Sequence record: MW250785
DNA: 64,000 nt
Origin: Escherichia phage UPEC03
Direction: 5' to 3' (one strand)
Below are positions 1-23,037 of the stretch, in pieces (the first letter of the stretch is position 1; each line of letters opens with the position of its first letter). The notes below the pieces were generated by a model, which had not been told where the DNA came from, did not search any database, and saw only the letters and a program-made list of their open reading frames with translations. The position numbers and the translations under genes are program-made.

Positions 1-1218
1 AAGGATAAAGACGAGAAGAAATTCAGCAAGAAAGTATTGTCTTTGCTGGGTGCAATCAAGGATAATACATCCGGTCTTCTGGCTCGCTTTATCGGTTATT
101 CTCTCGAAGCGCTGGCGAAGTTTGCAAAATGGACTCTGATTATCGGTAGTATCGTATTTGCGATCGACGTACTGAGTAAGGTTGTTCAGAAGTGGTTCCA
201 GGATATTCTTGCAGAGGGTGAAGCCTCGAAAGATTTGTTTGGTTCATACTTCGGGAATATCAAAACCCTTGCTGAGAAAATCAACGAAGGTCTGCAAAAC
301 TTTGATATGAGTAATTTGGGCGAATCGCTGAAAAACTTGTTCCTTGAACCGTTTAAGGTTCTGGGCGATACCATCAAAACCGCAATCACGGAAGGTATCG
401 GTAATCTGATTTACGCTCTGGGTGAATATACCGGATCTGAAACAATTACCAACGCCGGACGCGGAATGAAAGTATCAGCACTGCGCGACAAACAAAAATA
501 CGGTCTTGAAATTGATCCCGATGACCTGATTCTGCTGAAACAGCAGGAGATCCAGGATCAGAATGATAAAGTGGTTGAGGCACGTTCTAAGGTTGTCGAA
601 CAGGTTAAGGCTACCCAGGGCGCATTCTCATATAGTTTCGGACAGCAAACAGACGCACAGAAAGCATTGTCTAAGCAATTGGAACAGATGCGCGATCGTG
701 TGGCTATTGAAGAAAAGATCACCGAAGAGAAGAAGAAAGAACTGAAAGCATTGCAGGAAAACCCCGCACTGTTACAGGCTGAGGTTGATAAAGAGAATAC
801 CGCTAATCGTAAGCGCGTGGACGAAACCAAACAGATCGAAGCCGCGCAAGCGAAAGCGAAACCTAAAGCGGATAATGAATTCGATCAGGGCGATGAAATC
901 CTGAACAAAGACAATCTGACGGGCAACGATAAAAAGGTAATGGAAAAACTCATAGAATCGCTTGAAGAGAAAAACAACTCCAAGAAACTTGACGAAGACG
1001 ATAGCGAACGATTCCGCTCAATGCTTGACCAGTGGCAGAACAAGATCGCCGCAGTACCGGAAAGCAGTGCAAGTATTGACAAGCAACCGGAAGCAGTGAA
1101 AGCCCCTGTTCAGCCTACAACGCCTAACAGCGTTCAGGTCAACAACAAAACAGTAAACAACACGGTTCAGCATTCAGTACAACGAACTGACCGTAAATCA
1201 TTGATTGCATTAGCTTAA
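1..1218 (+). CDS. Baseplate hub / tail-associated protein, T4 gp29-like, 5'-partial (continues upstream of window)
   Basis: Frame is open from nt 1 (listed start at 37 is only a TTG); K/E/Q-rich coiled-coil-like sequence; sits directly upstream of gp48- and gp54-like genes as in T4 order 29-48-54. Confidence 0.5.
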   Translation, partial: KDKDEKKFSKKVLSLLGAIKDNTSGLLARFIGYSLEALAKFAKWTLIIGSIVFAIDVLSKVVQKWFQDILAEGEASKDLFGSYFGNIKTLAEKINEGLQNFDMSNLGESLKNLFLEPFKVLGDTIKTAITEGIGNLIYALGEYTGSETITNAGRGMKVSALRDKQKYGLEIDPDDLILLKQQEIQDQNDKVVEARSKVVEQVKATQGAFSYSFGQQTDAQKALSKQLEQMRDRVAIEEKITEEKKKELKALQENPALLQAEVDKENTANRKRVDETKQIEAAQAKAKPKADNEFDQGDEILNKDNLTGNDKKVMEKLIESLEEKNNSKKLDEDDSERFRSMLDQWQNKIAAVPESSASIDKQPEAVKAPVQPTTPNSVQVNNKTVNNTVQHSVQRTDRKSLIALA

Positions 1219-1229
1219 AGGAAATTTAA

Positions 1230-2315
1230 ATGAAAATTACAGTATTGCAAGACACTGTACAATCATTTGCTGAAATCAAAAATGCTGGCATCCCCTCTGG
1301 GGGTGCTGCAACAACTAAAAACGCGTTGACTCAACCGATCGTAACAGCGGAATTTCCTTCCCAACGTGCAGCAGGTATTGATAACGCTTATAATGCATCA
1401 AGCCTGTATAATAACGGCTTGCTGTTCACAGCATATGATTTCACGGGTGGACTTGCACCAGGCAGTAAAGACAACTACCGCTCATTACGTCAGGCAGCAC
1501 AGAACGCGCAACAGATCCTTAGTGCCAACACTGGGAACGTTCGATACAAACAGGTTTTGAATACCCGTACTATGGGTACACTTAACCCCATTTGTCAAAT
1601 ACTTTTACCGCGAAGCCTGAACGATAACGAAGTGAACTCACACCGTTATCAGGATGCAACCGATAGTATTGTTGCTAAAGGTTTATCCCGTGCGGTATCA
1701 AACGTTATCTGGGGCGCTGTAGAATCCGTTTCTGGTGGTATTCTGGCAGACCGTAGGGAAGCAATCGACATCGGTACGAAAGCAGCGTTTCAAGGCTCTG
1801 ATAAGCGCACAAAGATGTATTACAATACATTCGTTATCGAAAGCCGTTATGACCTGCTGGAACTGATTAAAATCTATTACCTGTTCACGGTGCTGGGTTA
1901 TGGTACTACTTCTGGCGGTACTCCAGCAGAATTAGCCGGACTGGTTAAACAAGCGTATAATTCCAGCGCTTCGAAGGTTGCAAACGTTTTTGCACCATCA
2001 ACAAACCAGACGACAGCAAGCGATTTCAACGGCAGCATCGGGGATCAGATTGTTGACTTCGTATCGAACGTTGAAGTTATTAAATCGCCTCCTGTGTGGT
2101 TTATTCGTGACTTCCAGACAGGTGACAGTTTGCGGTTCCCTCATTCCACGTTCGGGCCAGCAGGTATTACCAGCGTTCGTTTCGGGCGTACAATGGACAA
2201 CATTGTAAATACGTTGAGAGAATCACCGAACACCCCGATCGCAGTTGAAATCGAAATTCAGTTTATGGAACTGATCGATATGCGTCAGGATTCGATTTTT
2301 GATACGCAGTATTAA
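1230..2315 (+). CDS. 48: Baseplate tail tube cap protein (T4 gp48-like)
   Basis: 361 aa (T4 gp48 is of similar size); ATG shortly after previous stop; synteny 29-48-54. Confidence 0.55.
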   Translation: MKITVLQDTVQSFAEIKNAGIPSGGAATTKNALTQPIVTAEFPSQRAAGIDNAYNASSLYNNGLLFTAYDFTGGLAPGSKDNYRSLRQAAQNAQQILSANTGNVRYKQVLNTRTMGTLNPICQILLPRSLNDNEVNSHRYQDATDSIVAKGLSRAVSNVIWGAVESVSGGILADRREAIDIGTKAAFQGSDKRTKMYYNTFVIESRYDLLELIKIYYLFTVLGYGTTSGGTPAELAGLVKQAYNSSASKVANVFAPSTNQTTASDFNGSIGDQIVDFVSNVEVIKSPPVWFIRDFQTGDSLRFPHSTFGPAGITSVRFGRTMDNIVNTLRESPNTPIAVEIEIQFMELIDMRQDSIFDTQY

Positions 2316-2324
2316 GGGGGAACA

Positions 2325-3188
2325 ATGTTCTATAGCGTAGATGAATTTTTGTCAGGAATGGCAAATAGAGACTTTCAGCGAAGCAACCTGTTTAGTGTTG
2401 TATTCGCAACCAGTCCTGCATCACGCATTCTCGACAGCACGATCGGGAGTATCCGCGATACTTTAATAGATGGTACTATGAGTTCCATTAACGCGAATAA
2501 CCCGAACGAGTTCATGAACGCTATTACAGGGGGCGTAAGCAAGCTATTCAGCTATACAGTTGATAAAGCTATTATGTCCCTGAACAAAACAGGTTTCAGT
2601 AAAATCATGGGGGCGTTAAGCCCTCGTTTAATTACTTCCCTGTTTGGTGATAGTGTTTACGGACAGATGCTAACAGAATTCCGTGACAAAATGATGTATA
2701 ATATGGGGTTGAGCATCGTTGGTGTTCAGTTGCCTGGCAAAACGCTGGGTTATGAATACGTGTATAATGGCGGTGTACCCCAGATCCGATTCACCCGACC
2801 GGAGAATGGAGAATTATCACTAACGTTCCGTGTGGATTCAGAAGCGCGTAACCTGAAAGTATTCAACGAATGGTTATCGGCTATTCGCGATGATATTACA
2901 GGCCAGTTCGCATTCATTGATGAAGTATCAAGCGCGATCCAGGTAAACTTACACAATCGCGATGGTGTCCCGCACAGCACGTATGTATTCCAGAAGTGTT
3001 TGCCTGTTAAAGTCAGCAACCCAGAACTGAGTTATGAAAGCAATAACGAAATCTGGACATTCACTGTTGACTTTGCATATAAAACAGGCTGGCTTGTCGA
3101 AGCAGATAAAGAAGGTTGGGACGGATTCAAACAATCACTTATCGAAGGGGCAGCAATTGCCGTTCGTGGTGTGGTTACAGGACAATAA
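2325..3188 (+). CDS. 54: Baseplate tail tube initiator (T4 gp54-like)
   Basis: 287 aa, tightly coupled downstream of gp48-like gene; assignment by synteny and size only. Confidence 0.5.
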   Translation: MFYSVDEFLSGMANRDFQRSNLFSVVFATSPASRILDSTIGSIRDTLIDGTMSSINANNPNEFMNAITGGVSKLFSYTVDKAIMSLNKTGFSKIMGALSPRLITSLFGDSVYGQMLTEFRDKMMYNMGLSIVGVQLPGKTLGYEYVYNGGVPQIRFTRPENGELSLTFRVDSEARNLKVFNEWLSAIRDDITGQFAFIDEVSSAIQVNLHNRDGVPHSTYVFQKCLPVKVSNPELSYESNNEIWTFTVDFAYKTGWLVEADKEGWDGFKQSLIEGAAIAVRGVVTGQ

Positions 3189-3215: not shown

Positions 3216-3959
3216 ATGATTGACATAATCCGCGTAAAACTCCCAGGTGGAGTGAAGCGATTCCCTATGTTTACCGTGCGCGATCAATTGAGTTTCTTAC
3301 TCACAAGCGCGGACATGGAAGGGAAGACGCTCACAGAACAGCAAGAAATGCTGGATGAAATTTTAGATATTCTGTATCCGGGTTATTCCCGCACCGAACA
3401 GGAAAACATTTTCACTAAGGTGTATTGTGTATCGTTCGGTAAGAACGCAATCAAGATCCGAATCAAAGGCAGCAGCGGACAATCAGAAGCATTCATGCAT
3501 GTAACTGATTACGTTTTGCAAAATGAATATGCCCTTGATGATTCGCTTACTCTGGGATTCAAATTCCCGAAACATCGTAACAACAGTGAACAATTATTCC
3601 TTGAATGTATCCAGTATGTCAAGCAGGACGGCGAAAGATACGAATGGAATGCATTAGACGAGGATACAAAGAACGCGATCCTGGATCTGGTGTCTATTGA
3701 AGATATGGAAAATATCGTTAAACTGTTACGCAAGTCCTGTCATGTTACCGTGCGTGATATTGAGTTCAGCGACTTATTGACACTGTACAAAATCCTGTTC
3801 AACAAATCAGAACTGAATGAGTTCTTCAAAACCAACTATTTGTTAAATAAGAATACCGTACAGATTGAACCTATAATGAATGGAAGCCCGATGGAACGTT
3901 CAATTTACGTTGCATTGCTGGCAGAAGACTTGAAACGAAAAGAGAATGCAAATGCGTAA
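3216..3959 (+). CDS. Putative baseplate hub assembly protein (T4 gp51-like by size and position)
   Basis: 247 aa; ATG at 3216 preceded by GAGG; lies between gp54-like and gp25; no motif recognised, synteny and size only. Confidence 0.35.
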   Translation: MIDIIRVKLPGGVKRFPMFTVRDQLSFLLTSADMEGKTLTEQQEMLDEILDILYPGYSRTEQENIFTKVYCVSFGKNAIKIRIKGSSGQSEAFMHVTDYVLQNEYALDDSLTLGFKFPKHRNNSEQLFLECIQYVKQDGERYEWNALDEDTKNAILDLVSIEDMENIVKLLRKSCHVTVRDIEFSDLLTLYKILFNKSELNEFFKTNYLLNKNTVQIEPIMNGSPMERSIYVALLAEDLKRKENANA

Positions 3960-4509
3960 ACATACCCCCCGACATATCCCAAAATATAATGTGACTTATC
4001 GCCCGTTAACCATTGGCGATCTTGATGATACGGATAACTTCATCATTGAAGGTGATGTGTTCAGGCATCAGCGCGATTATGTTTACATTATGGCTCTGTT
4101 CGACAGTATCAACAAAGAGACTGTAGATCTCCAAATCAAATGCCCTGAATGCGGGGAACTGATTAAGTTTGTGCTCAACCGTCATCATATCATGGTGGAT
4201 GAATACGAAGAAAAGCTGTATGGCAATGAGATCAAGATTTCAGTTGAACCACGTCGCACCGGAAAGGAAGAGTTACCCGAACTGATTAAGTTTGTTGTCA
4301 TCGACGGTGAACAAATCTTATGGGATGACTGTAAAGAGTCAGAGAAAGAAGCCGTTCTGGATAGTATCGACTATCCGGTCTTTAAATCAATAAATAGCGC
4401 CCTGGATAAGCCAGCAATCGTTGCAAACATTCCGGTAAGGTGTTCGTGTGGCTACGAGCATATCGTTGCACTGAGAGGCTTAGAGGCGTTTCTAAAGGTG
4501 GTTGGATAA
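3946..4509 (+). CDS. Putative baseplate hub subunit (T4 gp26-like by size and position); Cys-rich
   Basis: 187 aa, overlaps upstream gene by 14 nt and gp25 start region; CPECG...CSCG cysteine pairs; assignment by synteny only. Confidence 0.35.
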   Translation: MQMRKHTPRHIPKYNVTYRPLTIGDLDDTDNFIIEGDVFRHQRDYVYIMALFDSINKETVDLQIKCPECGELIKFVLNRHHIMVDEYEEKLYGNEIKISVEPRRTGKEELPELIKFVVIDGEQILWDDCKESEKEAVLDSIDYPVFKSINSALDKPAIVANIPVRCSCGYEHIVALRGLEAFLKVVG

Positions 4510-6383: not shown

Positions 6384-6857
6384 TTAGCCGTCATAACCAC
6401 CACCGCAACGAACATCACCTTCAATGAACAGTTCGCGGTTATCTCTCAGGAGATTGTATTTCTTTTCGAGTTCCGGCCCGAATGCGTCCGCGTCGTCATA
6501 CCAGTCATAGTTATAACTTCCGGTTTCCTCGTCGTATTCCGGTTCGTCGCCGCACTCATTGAAGTGAACGATTTTAACATCATCCAGATTCAGTTCTTTC
6601 AGCTTGTCCCAGATGCGGGTTATTTCGACGCTATTACATCCGAACGCTTCCAGTGTGATTGTACCGTCATCATGTACTTGAGGAACACCCCAGCGCGGAC
6701 GATGATGAATTTCGGTGATCATATCCATCAGCGATTCAACGTTTGACTCACCGTAAATCTTTGCAACTTCCTGTTCTTTACCAGGGCGGACAAGTCCTAT
6801 CCCGATAATGAAACTACTGCTTGAGCTATTGCTCACGAACCCAGAACGGATCTTCAT
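6384..6857 (-). CDS. Hypothetical protein, conserved-N-terminus family (MKIRSGFVSNSSSSSFI...), acidic/aromatic C-terminus
   Basis: N-terminal 17 aa identical to ORF 10292-10804 with only synonymous codon differences; C-terminus D/E/Y/W-rich. Confidence 0.55.
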   Translation of the reverse strand: MKIRSGFVSNSSSSSFIIGIGLVRPGKEQEVAKIYGESNVESLMDMITEIHHRPRWGVPQVHDDGTITLEAFGCNSVEITRIWDKLKELNLDDVKIVHFNECGDEPEYDEETGSYNYDWYDDADAFGPELEKKYNLLRDNRELFIEGDVRCGGGYDG

Positions 6858-7045
6858 CGCCTTGCCTCGTATTTCGCGTTATCTGCGATTTTCTCATGAT
6901 ACAGGTTGTATGACAACACCAGCGGGATACAAGCTACTATAAGCCCGATGATAGCCAGTTGATATTCGCGTTTATCGAACGCCATGAATGTAATCGTAGC
7001 GCCCAGAATAAACACACCTAACGCAATGATGAAGAATAATGTCAT
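6854..7045 (-). CDS. Small membrane protein (two predicted TM helices)
   Basis: 63 aa, two hydrophobic stretches; 4-nt overlaps with both neighbours. Confidence 0.45.
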   Translation of the reverse strand: MTLFFIIALGVFILGATITFMAFDKREYQLAIIGLIVACIPLVLSYNLYHEKIADNAKYEARR

Positions 7046-17348: not shown

Positions 17349-17520
17349 ACGTGCTCCACGTTTAAAGGTTAATCATAAAACAGACGCAATCACCAATACA
17401 CCAAGAAAACCGCCAATAAAGCCGAAGAATAGCGAAATGAAGATAGTAAGGATGATCTGTTTTATGTTCATTGTAGTATTCTCGTTCGGAGAAAGCCCCC
17501 GCTCTGGGGGCTTTAAACCC

Positions 17521-20699: not shown

Positions 20700-20904
20700 G
20701 ATTAGCTCGCTCCACCGCTACCGCATCACGAACAGCATCGGTGATTTCATTTTCAACGAAATCCAGGATATCCGCTGTAATATCGTCGATACAGGATTGA
20801 TTGTAGTTACGTGAATCAGGATCATCATCTTCGGCATAATCCTGATACGCTTCGCCCAGTTGTTTCAGCTTGTGTTTTAACAGCTTTTGTTCTTGCGGTC
20901 TCAT
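20692..20904 (-). CDS. Hypothetical acidic protein (70 aa)
   Basis: Coupled ORF downstream of macrodomain gene. Confidence 0.4.
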   Translation of the reverse strand: MRPQEQKLLKHKLKQLGEAYQDYAEDDDPDSRNYNQSCIDDITADILDFVENEITDAVRDAVAVERANHD

Positions 20905-21398
20905 GATAAATCCGCCTTATGTGGATCAACCGATGGATCGAAGTGAACAACGATGATTGGATAATCACCCGTACACTCGTCGATAATGGCGCTAATACGC
21001 AACCAATCGCCACCAGCAAGCCCCGCACCGATAAGAGGGGTAATGATAGGCAATTTTTCAGGAAACGCACTGGCGCGTTCTACGGCGCTCACAAAGCATG
21101 ATCGGATTGCGTCATAATCCACTTGCGGGCCAGTACCCCAGAATTTAAACTGAGTGTAGGCATTGAAGACAATCTGACCTTCTTCCGTCATGTAGATGGA
21201 GTTAGTGCCTAACTTACGCTGGTCTCCTTTCATCGTCAATGCATCAATTTTGAACGCACCAGGGATTTTGTGCTTCACTTCTTTAGCAATACCCGCACCC
21301 ATGTTGCAATAACAGTTACACCCATGAATCAAGTGTACTTTTCGTTTCAGGAACAACTCTACAGCGTTCCCTTTGATTTCTTTAATAATCATTTTCAT
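20901..21398 (-). CDS. Macrodomain protein, TARG1/DarG-like (putative ADP-ribosyl hydrolase)
   Basis: HLIHGCNCYCNMGAGIA and PLIGAGLAGGDW resemble the TARG1 (C6orf130)/DarG macrodomain motifs; ATG at 21398. Confidence 0.65.
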   Translation of the reverse strand: MKMIIKEIKGNAVELFLKRKVHLIHGCNCYCNMGAGIAKEVKHKIPGAFKIDALTMKGDQRKLGTNSIYMTEEGQIVFNAYTQFKFWGTGPQVDYDAIRSCFVSAVERASAFPEKLPIITPLIGAGLAGGDWLRISAIIDECTGDYPIIVVHFDPSVDPHKADLS

Positions 21399-21622
21399 CA
21401 CCTGTATAGTGGCGGTAAGCCAGCACAGCCAGCCCCGCGATCACAACAATAACACACATTAAGATATAACCTGTGTTCATTTAAATTGGTCATCCCATCT
21501 TTGCCACGCTTCCAACTCGTCATCATATACAGGGAACGAGCTTTCGTTTGGCTTTTTAACGTAATACCAGATAATGATTGCAGCAGCAATCACACACCCA
21601 TAAAAGATCACTAATCCCAACA

Positions 21623-21943
21623 TCAGTATAATCCTATACCAGCGTTATATTCTTCAACCAGGTAAGTACGGAGTTTTTCACAACGTTCCTTATTTGGCGC
21701 TTTGGTGCAGAGGTTCATCATCGGTTCAGACTGCAAAAACTCACGCTGTTTAACCAGCTTCTGACGCTTGAAGAGGTGCGCATTTTCTTCGCCCCATACA
21801 TAAGCCGCGTCCAGTTGTTCAGCGATTACCTGTTCACATACCGCAACGTCTTTAATGTCACGATTATTGCAGAGTTCAGCCAGTCGATCATCAGCATGAG
21901 CAAAGCCAGCAAACAGAGTGAGTAACAGCGCAAGTTTTTTCAT
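21623..21943 (-). CDS. Secreted/periplasmic Cys-containing protein (106 aa)
   Basis: Signal peptide MKKLALLLTLFAGFAHA; four Cys in the mature part. Confidence 0.5.
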   Translation of the reverse strand: MKKLALLLTLFAGFAHADDRLAELCNNRDIKDVAVCEQVIAEQLDAAYVWGEENAHLFKRQKLVKQREFLQSEPMMNLCTKAPNKERCEKLRTYLVEEYNAGIGLY

Positions 21944-21952
21944 CGTTTTACC

Positions 21953-22564
21953 TTAGTATGAATCGTTTTCGATAGGGGTATAATAATGGGTTTCGCAGAC
22001 ATAAGCAAGCACTGATCGCAAACTATCGCTTTCAAATTCTGGCTTTTGATTGAGTTCCAGACTCCAGCCAGTGAAGCACATCCAGCGTTCTTCTGCAACG
22101 TCAAAGGCTAACCAATACATGTTGAACTGTGAACATGTATGTTCGAAGATGTCGAATAGTAGTTTACCGCCGATCGGTTTCACATATGGTTTCACGCGTT
22201 GAAGCGATTTCAGGACTGTTTCGAGGTTACTGCGATCCTCATTCATCGCGATACGAAGAATATGCTGATTGGTTTCTGGGTTGTATCCATCAATCCCCAA
22301 CCCCATATCCTGGAAGAACTTAGTCGCATCATGGAAAATCTCTCGTCCGCTGTTCGGGGAATTGATGTAAAACTTAATGCGTTGTTTTGGAGTCATCGCG
22401 CGGACACGGGAAGCGGTTTTGTGATCGATCTCTTCTTTGATGTCTTTGCGAGCGTTCAGAAGTTTATTCAGCTTTTCCTGGTAAGGTTTCATTACCGCCC
22501 TGATCTCGTCGATACGTTCATCAACGATCGCTAACTGCTGTTCCGGTGTCAGTTTAGTTTCCAT
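21953..22564 (-). CDS. Hypothetical protein (203 aa)
   Basis: ORF with ATG start. Confidence 0.5.
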   Translation of the reverse strand: METKLTPEQQLAIVDERIDEIRAVMKPYQEKLNKLLNARKDIKEEIDHKTASRVRAMTPKQRIKFYINSPNSGREIFHDATKFFQDMGLGIDGYNPETNQHILRIAMNEDRSNLETVLKSLQRVKPYVKPIGGKLLFDIFEHTCSQFNMYWLAFDVAEERWMCFTGWSLELNQKPEFESDSLRSVLAYVCETHYYTPIENDSY

Positions 22565-22970: not shown

Positions 22971-23037
22971 AATTTAATCCTCAATAGTTGGTACACACAT
23001 AATAAAAAAGCCCCTGCGAAAATGCAAGGGCTTTTTA
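22971..23037 (-). promoter_or_regulatory. Terminator-promoter module (copy 3 of 6, variant -10)
   Basis: Minus strand AAAAAGCCC-TTGCAT-N17-TATTAT; hairpin 23005-23036. Confidence 0.4.

Follow-up and report, generated by a model that had tools for sequence, protein, structure and literature searches.

Between the vs and tk.4 genes, on the minus strand of a 64,000-nucleotide stretch of Escherichia phage UPEC03 (sequence record MW250785; the whole stretch is referred to here as the window), lie two tiny open reading frames (ORFs), sORF-B and sORF-A. The way in which their sequences vary among related phages supports both being genuine protein-coding genes under purifying selection, with translation inferred. 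sORF-B (21477..21623) comprises 48 codons plus a stop codon, encoding MLGLVIFYGCVIAAAIIIWYYVKKPNESSFPVYDDELEAWQRWDDQFK, whilst sORF-A (21382..21480) comprises 32 codons plus a stop codon, encoding MNTGYILMCVIVVIAGLAVLAYRHYTGDENDY. A first-pass annotation of the sequence had described two minus-strand ORFs of about 32 and 49 codons at this point, and the peptides it quoted are present exactly, the 49 codons being 48 amino acids and a stop; it placed the pair correctly but drew its limits too tightly, at 21402-21612, the true span (21382-21623) being slightly wider. On balance, and by analogy with known small membrane proteins, we lean towards the view that the two products are small accessory single-pass inner-membrane proteins, made by coupled translation, that modulate a larger partner.

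Coding evidence for sORF-B and sORF-A

The homologous interval was collected from 13 further isolate records, six IMG/VR contigs and five metagenomic contigs. Ratios of nonsynonymous to synonymous substitution (dN/dS) were calculated by the Nei–Gojobori method, summed over pairs, and the excess of variable sites at codon position 3 was assessed with a binomial test. For sORF-B, dN/dS is 0.11 in its own frame as against 1.41 and 2.19 in the other two, and codon position 3 holds 36 of the 58 variable sites (P = 7e-6). The own-frame value for sORF-A is 0.26 (0.97 and 0.50 in the other frames), and position 3 accounts for 21 of its 40 variable sites (P = 0.01). Restricted to codons 1-24, which precede the tk.4 signals described below, the value is 0.25 and the share of position 3 is 17 of 33 variable sites. 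The corresponding figures for the flanking genes are 0.07 (others 2.56 and 1.65; 39 of 52 sites) for vs and 0.13 (others 1.90 and 1.61; 82 of 128 sites) for tk.4.

Both proteins also belong to established families. sORF-B matches phrog_10683 over its full length (residues 1-48 of a 48-position profile, E = 1e-36) and sORF-A likewise matches phrog_34526 (residues 1-32 of a 32-position profile, E = 8e-27), a profile that also recognises the divergent sORF-A copy of phage EcRAM-01 (6.6e-18). The length of sORF-A is constant at 32 codons in all seven distinct DNA versions, and its cluster contains 11 protein variants, distinguished almost solely by conservative I/V/A swaps within the TM (transmembrane) helix. 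The evidence is nevertheless weaker for sORF-A than for sORF-B, because sORF-A offers fewer informative sites and has a weak Shine–Dalgarno (SD) sequence.

The first-pass annotation had pointed out that the ORF track lists an out-of-frame 63-amino-acid ORF here instead. This is a minus-strand ORF with a TTG start at 21398..21589, in frame +1 relative to sORF-B and +2 relative to sORF-A. Were it the real gene, the two small ORFs would be chance frames, and it is indeed the longest ORF of the interval and open in all relatives examined. We give this reading next to no credence, however. The dN/dS value in the 63-amino-acid frame is 1.41 over the sORF-B part, so that no coding constraint is apparent there, and 0.50 over the sORF-A part, against 0.11 and 0.26 for the frames of the small ORFs. 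From clade to clade its sequence is little conserved, it begins with TTG, its best PHROG match (E = 0.026) is not significant, it has no hydrophobic or other recognisable domain (its best 17-residue insertion energy is +10.0, that is, no hydrophobic segment), and it is annotated in none of the records examined. We reject this ORF as a gene on its substitution pattern and the absence of a family match. Frame-specific dN/dS, the PHROG families and the annotation of coding sequences (CDSs) in GenBank all agree with the first-pass annotation in favouring the two small ORFs, which settles the annotation question.

Neither protein is new to the databases. Both exact sequences are deposited in NCBI and UniRef as hypothetical proteins (AFC22245.1, AOG16274.1 and others). 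The GenBank entries for sORF-B, again as a hypothetical protein, include GAP161_135, RB16p136 and RB43ORF149c, and CPT_Margaery145 and CPT_Margaery146 are GenBank hypothetical proteins of the same PHROG families. Annotation is inconsistent, sORF-B always being called and sORF-A only in some records: Fraggle_ER53, EC-F2, PF-CE2 and phi5, among others, carry both as CDSs and EcRAM-01 also has sORF-A, which is omitted from the GAP161, leE and Maroon records. sORF-A itself is intact in 44 phage records. A literature search for these genes, their locus tags and their PHROG identifiers returned nothing. The pair is in this sense made up of already catalogued hypothetical proteins of a well-known general kind, the phage small membrane proteins.

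The genes are joined to each other and to their neighbours by overlapping codons. The vs stop codon (TGA, 21625..21623) overlaps the sORF-B ATG (21623..21621) to give TGATG, and the sORF-B stop codon (TGA, 21479..21477) overlaps the sORF-A ATG (21480..21478) to give ATGA at 21480..21477, which bears out the ATGA coupling that had been read from the sequence at the outset. Junctions of the ATGA type are also present in RB16, RB43, Miller, EcRAM-01 and the IMG/VR contig L012. The translation start region of sORF-B (21621..21635, minus strand) has an SD-like AGGA at 21635..21632 and an 8-nt spacer before its ATG; the calculated SD/anti-SD duplex, at -4.0 kcal/mol, is similar to that of vs (-3.9). 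At the other end of the pair, the last codons of sORF-A (ACA GGT GAT GAA AAT GAT TAT TAA) hold the translation start region of tk.4 (21390..21403, minus strand), with an SD sequence (AGGTGA) at 21403..21398, a 5-nt spacer and an ATG at 21392, so that the two genes overlap by 11 nt if tk.4 begins there. The tk.4 start is given differently by different sources: the ORF finder uses a GTG at 21401, the GAP161 record an ATG at 21398 and the EC-F2 and phi5 records the ATG at 21392. The SD spacing and the N-termini of homologues favour the last of these, the protein then reading MIIKEIKG, as do RB43 and CfP1 tk.4, with MIVKYIKG in T4 Tk.4.

Membrane helices and the sORF-B tail motif

Each peptide had been credited with one TM helix, and each indeed contains a single 17-residue segment with a negative Hessa insertion energy, from which we infer membrane insertion. 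The best segments are residues 2-18 of sORF-B (-2.7 kcal/mol) and residues 5-21 of sORF-A (-3.2 kcal/mol). Amongst ORFs of 22-75 amino acids in all six frames of the window, just six reach such hydrophobicity; four of these fall between long ORFs, in each case on the minus (coding) strand, and two of the four are the adjacent pair described here. So few comparable ORFs, with two of the four intergenic ones adjoining, argue that the hydrophobicity of the pair exceeds chance. The other two intergenic examples are a 63-amino-acid ORF at 6854..7045 (minus strand) with two hydrophobic segments, which matches phrog_7160 (unknown function), and a 32-amino-acid single-TM ORF at 17373..17471 (minus strand), MNIKQIILTIFISLFFGFIGGFLGVLVIASVL, with no PHROG match.

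In the sORF-B protein, a TM helix at residues ~2-22 is followed by a KK pair, and a linker then leads to an acidic/aromatic helix at the C-terminus. In an AlphaFold2 (AF2) model, helices span residues 2-23 (predicted local distance difference test score, pLDDT, about 86) and 36-47, separated by a low-confidence, disordered linker, with a predicted template modelling score (pTM) of 0.36. sORF-A has its TM helix at residues ~5-21, followed by R23/H24 and an acidic tail. In both peptides the N-terminus is nearly absent and uncharged whilst basic residues come right after the helix, and the positive-inside rule therefore predicts an orientation with the N-terminus out and the C-terminus in (N-out/C-in).

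Comparison of 17 sORF-B sequences, with identity down to 19-30%, allowed us to define the family by a motif in its tail, Y33-x-D35-E36-L37-x-x-W40 in the window and Y-x-D-E-[LI]-x-x-W in the family as a whole. Y33, D35 and E36 do not vary at all and I6, L37 and W40 hardly vary, L37 and W40 being conserved in at least 90% of sequences in the family alignment. Members are built alike: the N-terminal TM helix leads into a K/R cluster, after which come a variable linker and then an acidic helix that contains the motif. The sORF-B of the window fits this plan. Every member has a 17-residue segment of negative insertion energy, none has a charge N-terminal to the helix, and immediately after the helix comes a basic cluster (KK for the window, RWRKMERDRKK for L012, HRRR for Pectobacterium phage POP12).

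sORF-B was found in all clades of the genus Pseudotevenvirus. Beyond the genus, profile searching brought up distant homologues in L012, in the metagenomic contigs L024 and L030, in Pantoea phage Phynn and in POP12. The L012 homologue has a GTG start that overlaps the vs stop codon. The POP12 homologue is an unannotated ORF of 55 amino acids with a very acidic tail and a GAGGT SD sequence. When 1.84 billion representative proteins were searched with the sORF-B profile, four clusters at 50% identity were recovered, and a word-index search of 5.8 billion proteins gave 16 clusters at 90% identity, all phage-like; tblastn searches of isolate phages with the POP12-type and L012-type proteins added nothing further. 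These figures may underestimate the breadth of the family, since gene callers miss such ORFs and the POP12 copy is not in the databases. Searches against the PADLOC profiles for anti-phage defence and exclusion gave no match at E up to 1.

Tiny partners and the neighbourhood of the pair

The phage from which the window derives is a T4-like member of the genus Pseudotevenvirus (family Straboviridae), in the RB43/GAP161 group. Over the 1.7 kb around the pair its DNA is 99.8% identical to that of Klebsiella phage vB_KpnM_Fraggle_ER53 and 98.4% identical to that of Cronobacter phage GAP161, and 59 related records come from phages of Enterobacter, Cronobacter, Citrobacter, Klebsiella and Escherichia.

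Across this wider set, sORF-B adjoins another single-TM ORF of about 26-32 amino acids in all seven arrangement types seen (B+A, B+C+A, B+C, B followed by a peptide of 27, 26 or 31 amino acids, and a 32-amino-acid peptide followed by B). B+A is the arrangement of the GAP161 clade. RB16, RB43, Miller, CfP1 and the sequences L028 and L029 have B+C, where sORF-C is a conserved 31-amino-acid single-TM peptide, MSIGLQFALLIGAVILMGLVIGIGYKMGNKE. All three genes, each joined to the next by overlapping stop and start codons, are found in EcRAM-01 (1201..1534) and in the sequences L026 (879..1227) and L027 (1013..1343). B+C+A is probably the more complete cassette, the GAP161 type having lost C and the RB16 type A. 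L012, L030 and L024 carry a peptide of 26-27 amino acids next to sORF-B and Phynn one of about 31, whilst in POP12 the order is reversed relative to the window, a 32-amino-acid ORF (1337..1435) preceding sORF-B (1442..1609) between vs and tk.4; both POP12 ORFs are unannotated and each has a strong SD sequence of its own (GAGGA and GAGGT).

sORF-C lies at 1344..1439 in both RB16 and RB43 and at about 1044..1139 in CfP1, and is unannotated in all three, although Miller and EcRAM-01 have it annotated. Its own-frame dN/dS is 0.23 (0.85 and 2.13 in the other frames), with 18 of 36 variable sites at position 3. RB16 and Miller retain it even though they are without tk.4. The CfP1 record places a ‘terminator’ inside sORF-C. 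The sORF-B gene of Citrobacter phage IME-CF2 (901..1119) lacks one nucleotide close to its end, whether through a natural frameshift or an error of sequencing, and so runs on into out-of-frame sequence; the fusion is annotated as a 72-amino-acid CDS, with sORF-C intact in its own frame. The tk.4 gene of RB43 is split into ORFs of 30 amino acids (1436..1528) and 132 amino acids (1530..1928), annotated as RB43ORF148c and RB43ORF147c, apparently through a frameshift in the macrodomain gene or a mistake in sequencing.

Some of the partners may be related to one another. The 27-amino-acid peptide of L012 shares the helix core of sORF-A, IVV[LI]xGLA[IV]L, in the same register, and in shuffles that kept TM residues within the TM block its resemblance to sORF-A had a p value of about 0.002 and that to the L024 peptide one of about 0.003. 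Paralogy of sORF-A and sORF-C is possible: both touch phrog_16377 (E = 0.004 and 3e-6, respectively) and they have DNA strings in common, for instance GCTGTT...GGGGCTGG; under a null that keeps TM residues in the TM block, the similarity of the two proteins is not significant.

Klebsiella phage KP15 (genus Slopekvirus) has no sORF-B and carries two other tiny single-TM ORFs in the same place after vs (2824..2940 and about 2933..3049 in our KP15 stretch, L010), each of about 38 amino acids and unannotated, the second matching phrog_26862. Because KP15 fills the slot with different tiny TM ORFs, the position after vs is a recurrent home of tiny membrane-peptide genes in this T4-like branch. In Phynn, vs is separated from the sORF-B homologue by an inserted gene for an ‘adhesin’ with a YadA anchor and by several further ORFs, so that the linkage of sORF-B to its tiny partner and tk.4 is tighter than that to vs. 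A partial ORF just upstream of sORF-B in L024 (2..538) may resemble the Phynn adhesin gene.

In the window, the minus-strand order is a 203-amino-acid ORF (22564..21953), vs (21623..21943), sORF-B, sORF-A, tk.4 (about 20901..21392), several small soluble ORFs and tk. The flanking genes are as the first-pass annotation had described them, a macrodomain gene on one side and a gene for a putative periplasmic protein on the other. tk.4 matches Pfam Macro (E = 3e-6) and phrog_335 (E = 2e-60). The 106-amino-acid vs product belongs to the ‘valyl-tRNA synthetase modifier’ family (phrog_1256, E = 9e-23; homologues have a precomputed match to PF26829, ValRS_modifier), contains four cysteines and has an N-terminus, MKKLALLLTLFAGFAHA/DD, that is signal-peptide-like by inspection. 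T4 Vs (3887..4234, minus strand, in the T4 stretch L020) opens in a similarly signal-peptide-like manner, MTKILVLCIGLISFSASASA/DT, again by inspection. A secreted location for Vs fits poorly with the function in its name. The sole strong minus-strand terminator near the pair is an intrinsic terminator at 23036..23005, with a 13-bp stem containing six GC pairs followed by a T-run, which lies just upstream of the 134-amino-acid ORF (22970) that opens the gene run to which vs, the pair and tk.4 belong. Beyond this terminator no promoter could be recognised, and a search of the whole 64-kb window with Rfam gave zero matches.

Possible functions and comparison with known small membrane proteins

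Under the interpretation we favour, the run of genes from the 134-amino-acid ORF through vs, sORF-B, sORF-A and tk.4 to tk would be read as one transcription unit. Co-transcription of the pair with vs and tk.4 is suggested by the position of the lone strong terminator upstream and by the packed and overlapping genes. Translation would pass from gene to gene through the overlapping stop and start codons, and each product would insert into the inner membrane as a single pass in the N-out/C-in orientation. sORF-B would thereby tether its acidic/aromatic Y-x-D-E-L-x-x-W helix at the cytoplasmic face of the membrane, whilst sORF-A would be scarcely more than a TM helix. Like bacterial small membrane proteins such as AcrZ, MgtS, KdpF and MgrB, the peptides would then most probably modulate a larger membrane protein, of host or phage, to which they attach by their TM helices and, in the case of sORF-B, by the tail motif as well. 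The helices of sORF-B and its tiny partner probably associate and act as a module, given that sORF-B adjoins a second TM peptide in every lineage seen.

A number of points weigh against such a role. Binding to a larger partner is argued from analogy only, and no significant Pfam, NCBIfam or PDB match was found for the pair, the best (KCNE2, E = 1.3) being at chance level. AF2 assigns the tail helix of sORF-B a pLDDT of only about 56-64. Neither tiny partner is indispensable by itself, as sORF-C is not present in phages of the GAP161 type and sORF-A is not present in RB16, RB43 or Miller, and T4 is without all of the tiny ORFs, its vs and tk.4 genes overlapping with nothing in between. Near the pair, the minus strand showed no promoter of the sigma-70-like, MotA-box-like or late (TATAAATA) type. 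Informative substitutions in sORF-A are few, its SD sequence amounts only to GGGA, 13 nt upstream of the start, and the conservation of its tail is at least partly due to the embedded ribosome-binding site and start codon of tk.4. Nor did the literature yield any Ribo-seq or proteomics for this genus.

The last of these features of sORF-A raise the question of whether it (and perhaps sORF-C elsewhere) is mainly a spacer ORF for translational coupling that brings ribosomes from sORF-B to the tk.4 start, its peptide having little or no function. The tk.4 SD sequence and ATG do lie inside the last eight codons of sORF-A, whose own SD sequence is weak; the ATGA and overlap junctions are conserved, from one clade to another the A and C slots can be exchanged or dispensed with, and T4 manages to couple vs straight to tk.4. 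A pure spacer, however, would not be expected to retain a hydrophobic helix, as sORF-A does with a dN/dS of 0.25 over the codons ahead of the tk.4 signals and with changes that are mostly conservative, hydrophobic for hydrophobic. The peptides of L012 and L024 in the same slot resemble the sORF-A helix core, and the persistence of sORF-C in RB16 and Miller, where there is no tk.4 to serve, points the same way. As an account of the whole gene we therefore regard the spacer explanation as unlikely, whilst for the sORF-A tail it is plausible.

It is also conceivable that the peptides act on the membrane itself, depolarising or permeabilising it in the manner of a holin, pinholin or type I toxin, to time lysis or to shut off the host. 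In size and architecture (one TM helix and a short charged C-terminus) they resemble TisB, Hok and Ldr-type toxins and small holins, a resemblance drawn from general knowledge and composition. Their setting speaks for something else: the pair sits in the tk-vs accessory region with neither a late promoter nearby nor an endolysin or spanin gene as neighbour, and the lysis-control gene of related phages (Antiholin family) is elsewhere. In addition, the conserved feature of sORF-B is its soluble tail motif rather than its helix, no holin or toxin match was found in PHROG, Pfam or NCBIfam, and early depolarisation would presumably harm a T4-like infection. We consider a membrane-acting role very doubtful.

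Returning to modulation of a larger partner, a more specific version can be sketched, in which sORF-B together with A and/or C would be a module confined to one T4-like branch (Pseudotevenvirus, Phynn-like and POP12-like phages) that captures or inhibits a particular host factor at the inner membrane. This is speculative and we think it improbable as it stands. If true, the Y-x-D-E-L-x-x-W helix might target a protease, a transporter or a defence effector bound to the membrane, and the module would be a phage device for host takeover or anti-defence of a new kind, with the variable partners tuning host specificity. More generally, should the tail motif bind any host factor, it would provide an entry point to a new function in host takeover or exclusion.

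What is new here is modest: frame-specific evidence that the two ORFs are genes, the tail motif, the module and its probably more complete B+C+A form, distant unannotated members and the contrast with T4. Together these add a defined, motif-bearing family and a recurrent arrangement of sORF-B plus a tiny partner to the largely uncharacterised small membrane proteins of phages. The same slot also holds tiny TM genes that are unannotated in reference genomes, namely sORF-C in RB16, RB43 and CfP1 and two genes each in KP15 and POP12.

How, then, does the pair compare with known systems? The proteins of phrog_10683 and phrog_34526 are the same proteins, with no difference; both entries are of unknown function and carry neither a motif description nor the module context. 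T4 Imm, Sp and RI are small, non-essential proteins located in the membrane or periplasm. The window pair is like them in consisting of small proteins of a T4-type phage, and it adjoins the signal-peptide-like protein Vs. It is unlike them in that Imm has two TM helices whilst Sp and RI are secreted or signal-arrest-release (SAR) proteins of about 83-97 amino acids, and no homology was detected. With TisB, Hok, Ldr and the pinholins the pair shares shortness, one hydrophobic helix and a charged end, without the antisense-RNA or lysis-cassette context of those systems. There are parallels, too, with the bacterial small single-pass membrane regulators or subunits AcrZ, MgrB, MgtS, MgtR and KdpF. 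In AcrZ the TM helix is N-terminal, and the segment after it, at the C-terminus, is cytoplasmic. Proteins of this group are 49 (AcrZ), 47 (MgrB), 31 (MgtS), 30 (MgtR) and 29 (KdpF) amino acids long, and the known ones bind a larger membrane protein (PMC12648545). The window pair differs from them in being phage-encoded and in forming a coupled pair or triplet, and has no sequence similarity to them. At 48 and 32 amino acids, sORF-B and sORF-A nevertheless resemble these proteins in being no longer than about 50 amino acids and in having one predicted TM helix, a likeness of architecture and presumed mode of action only.

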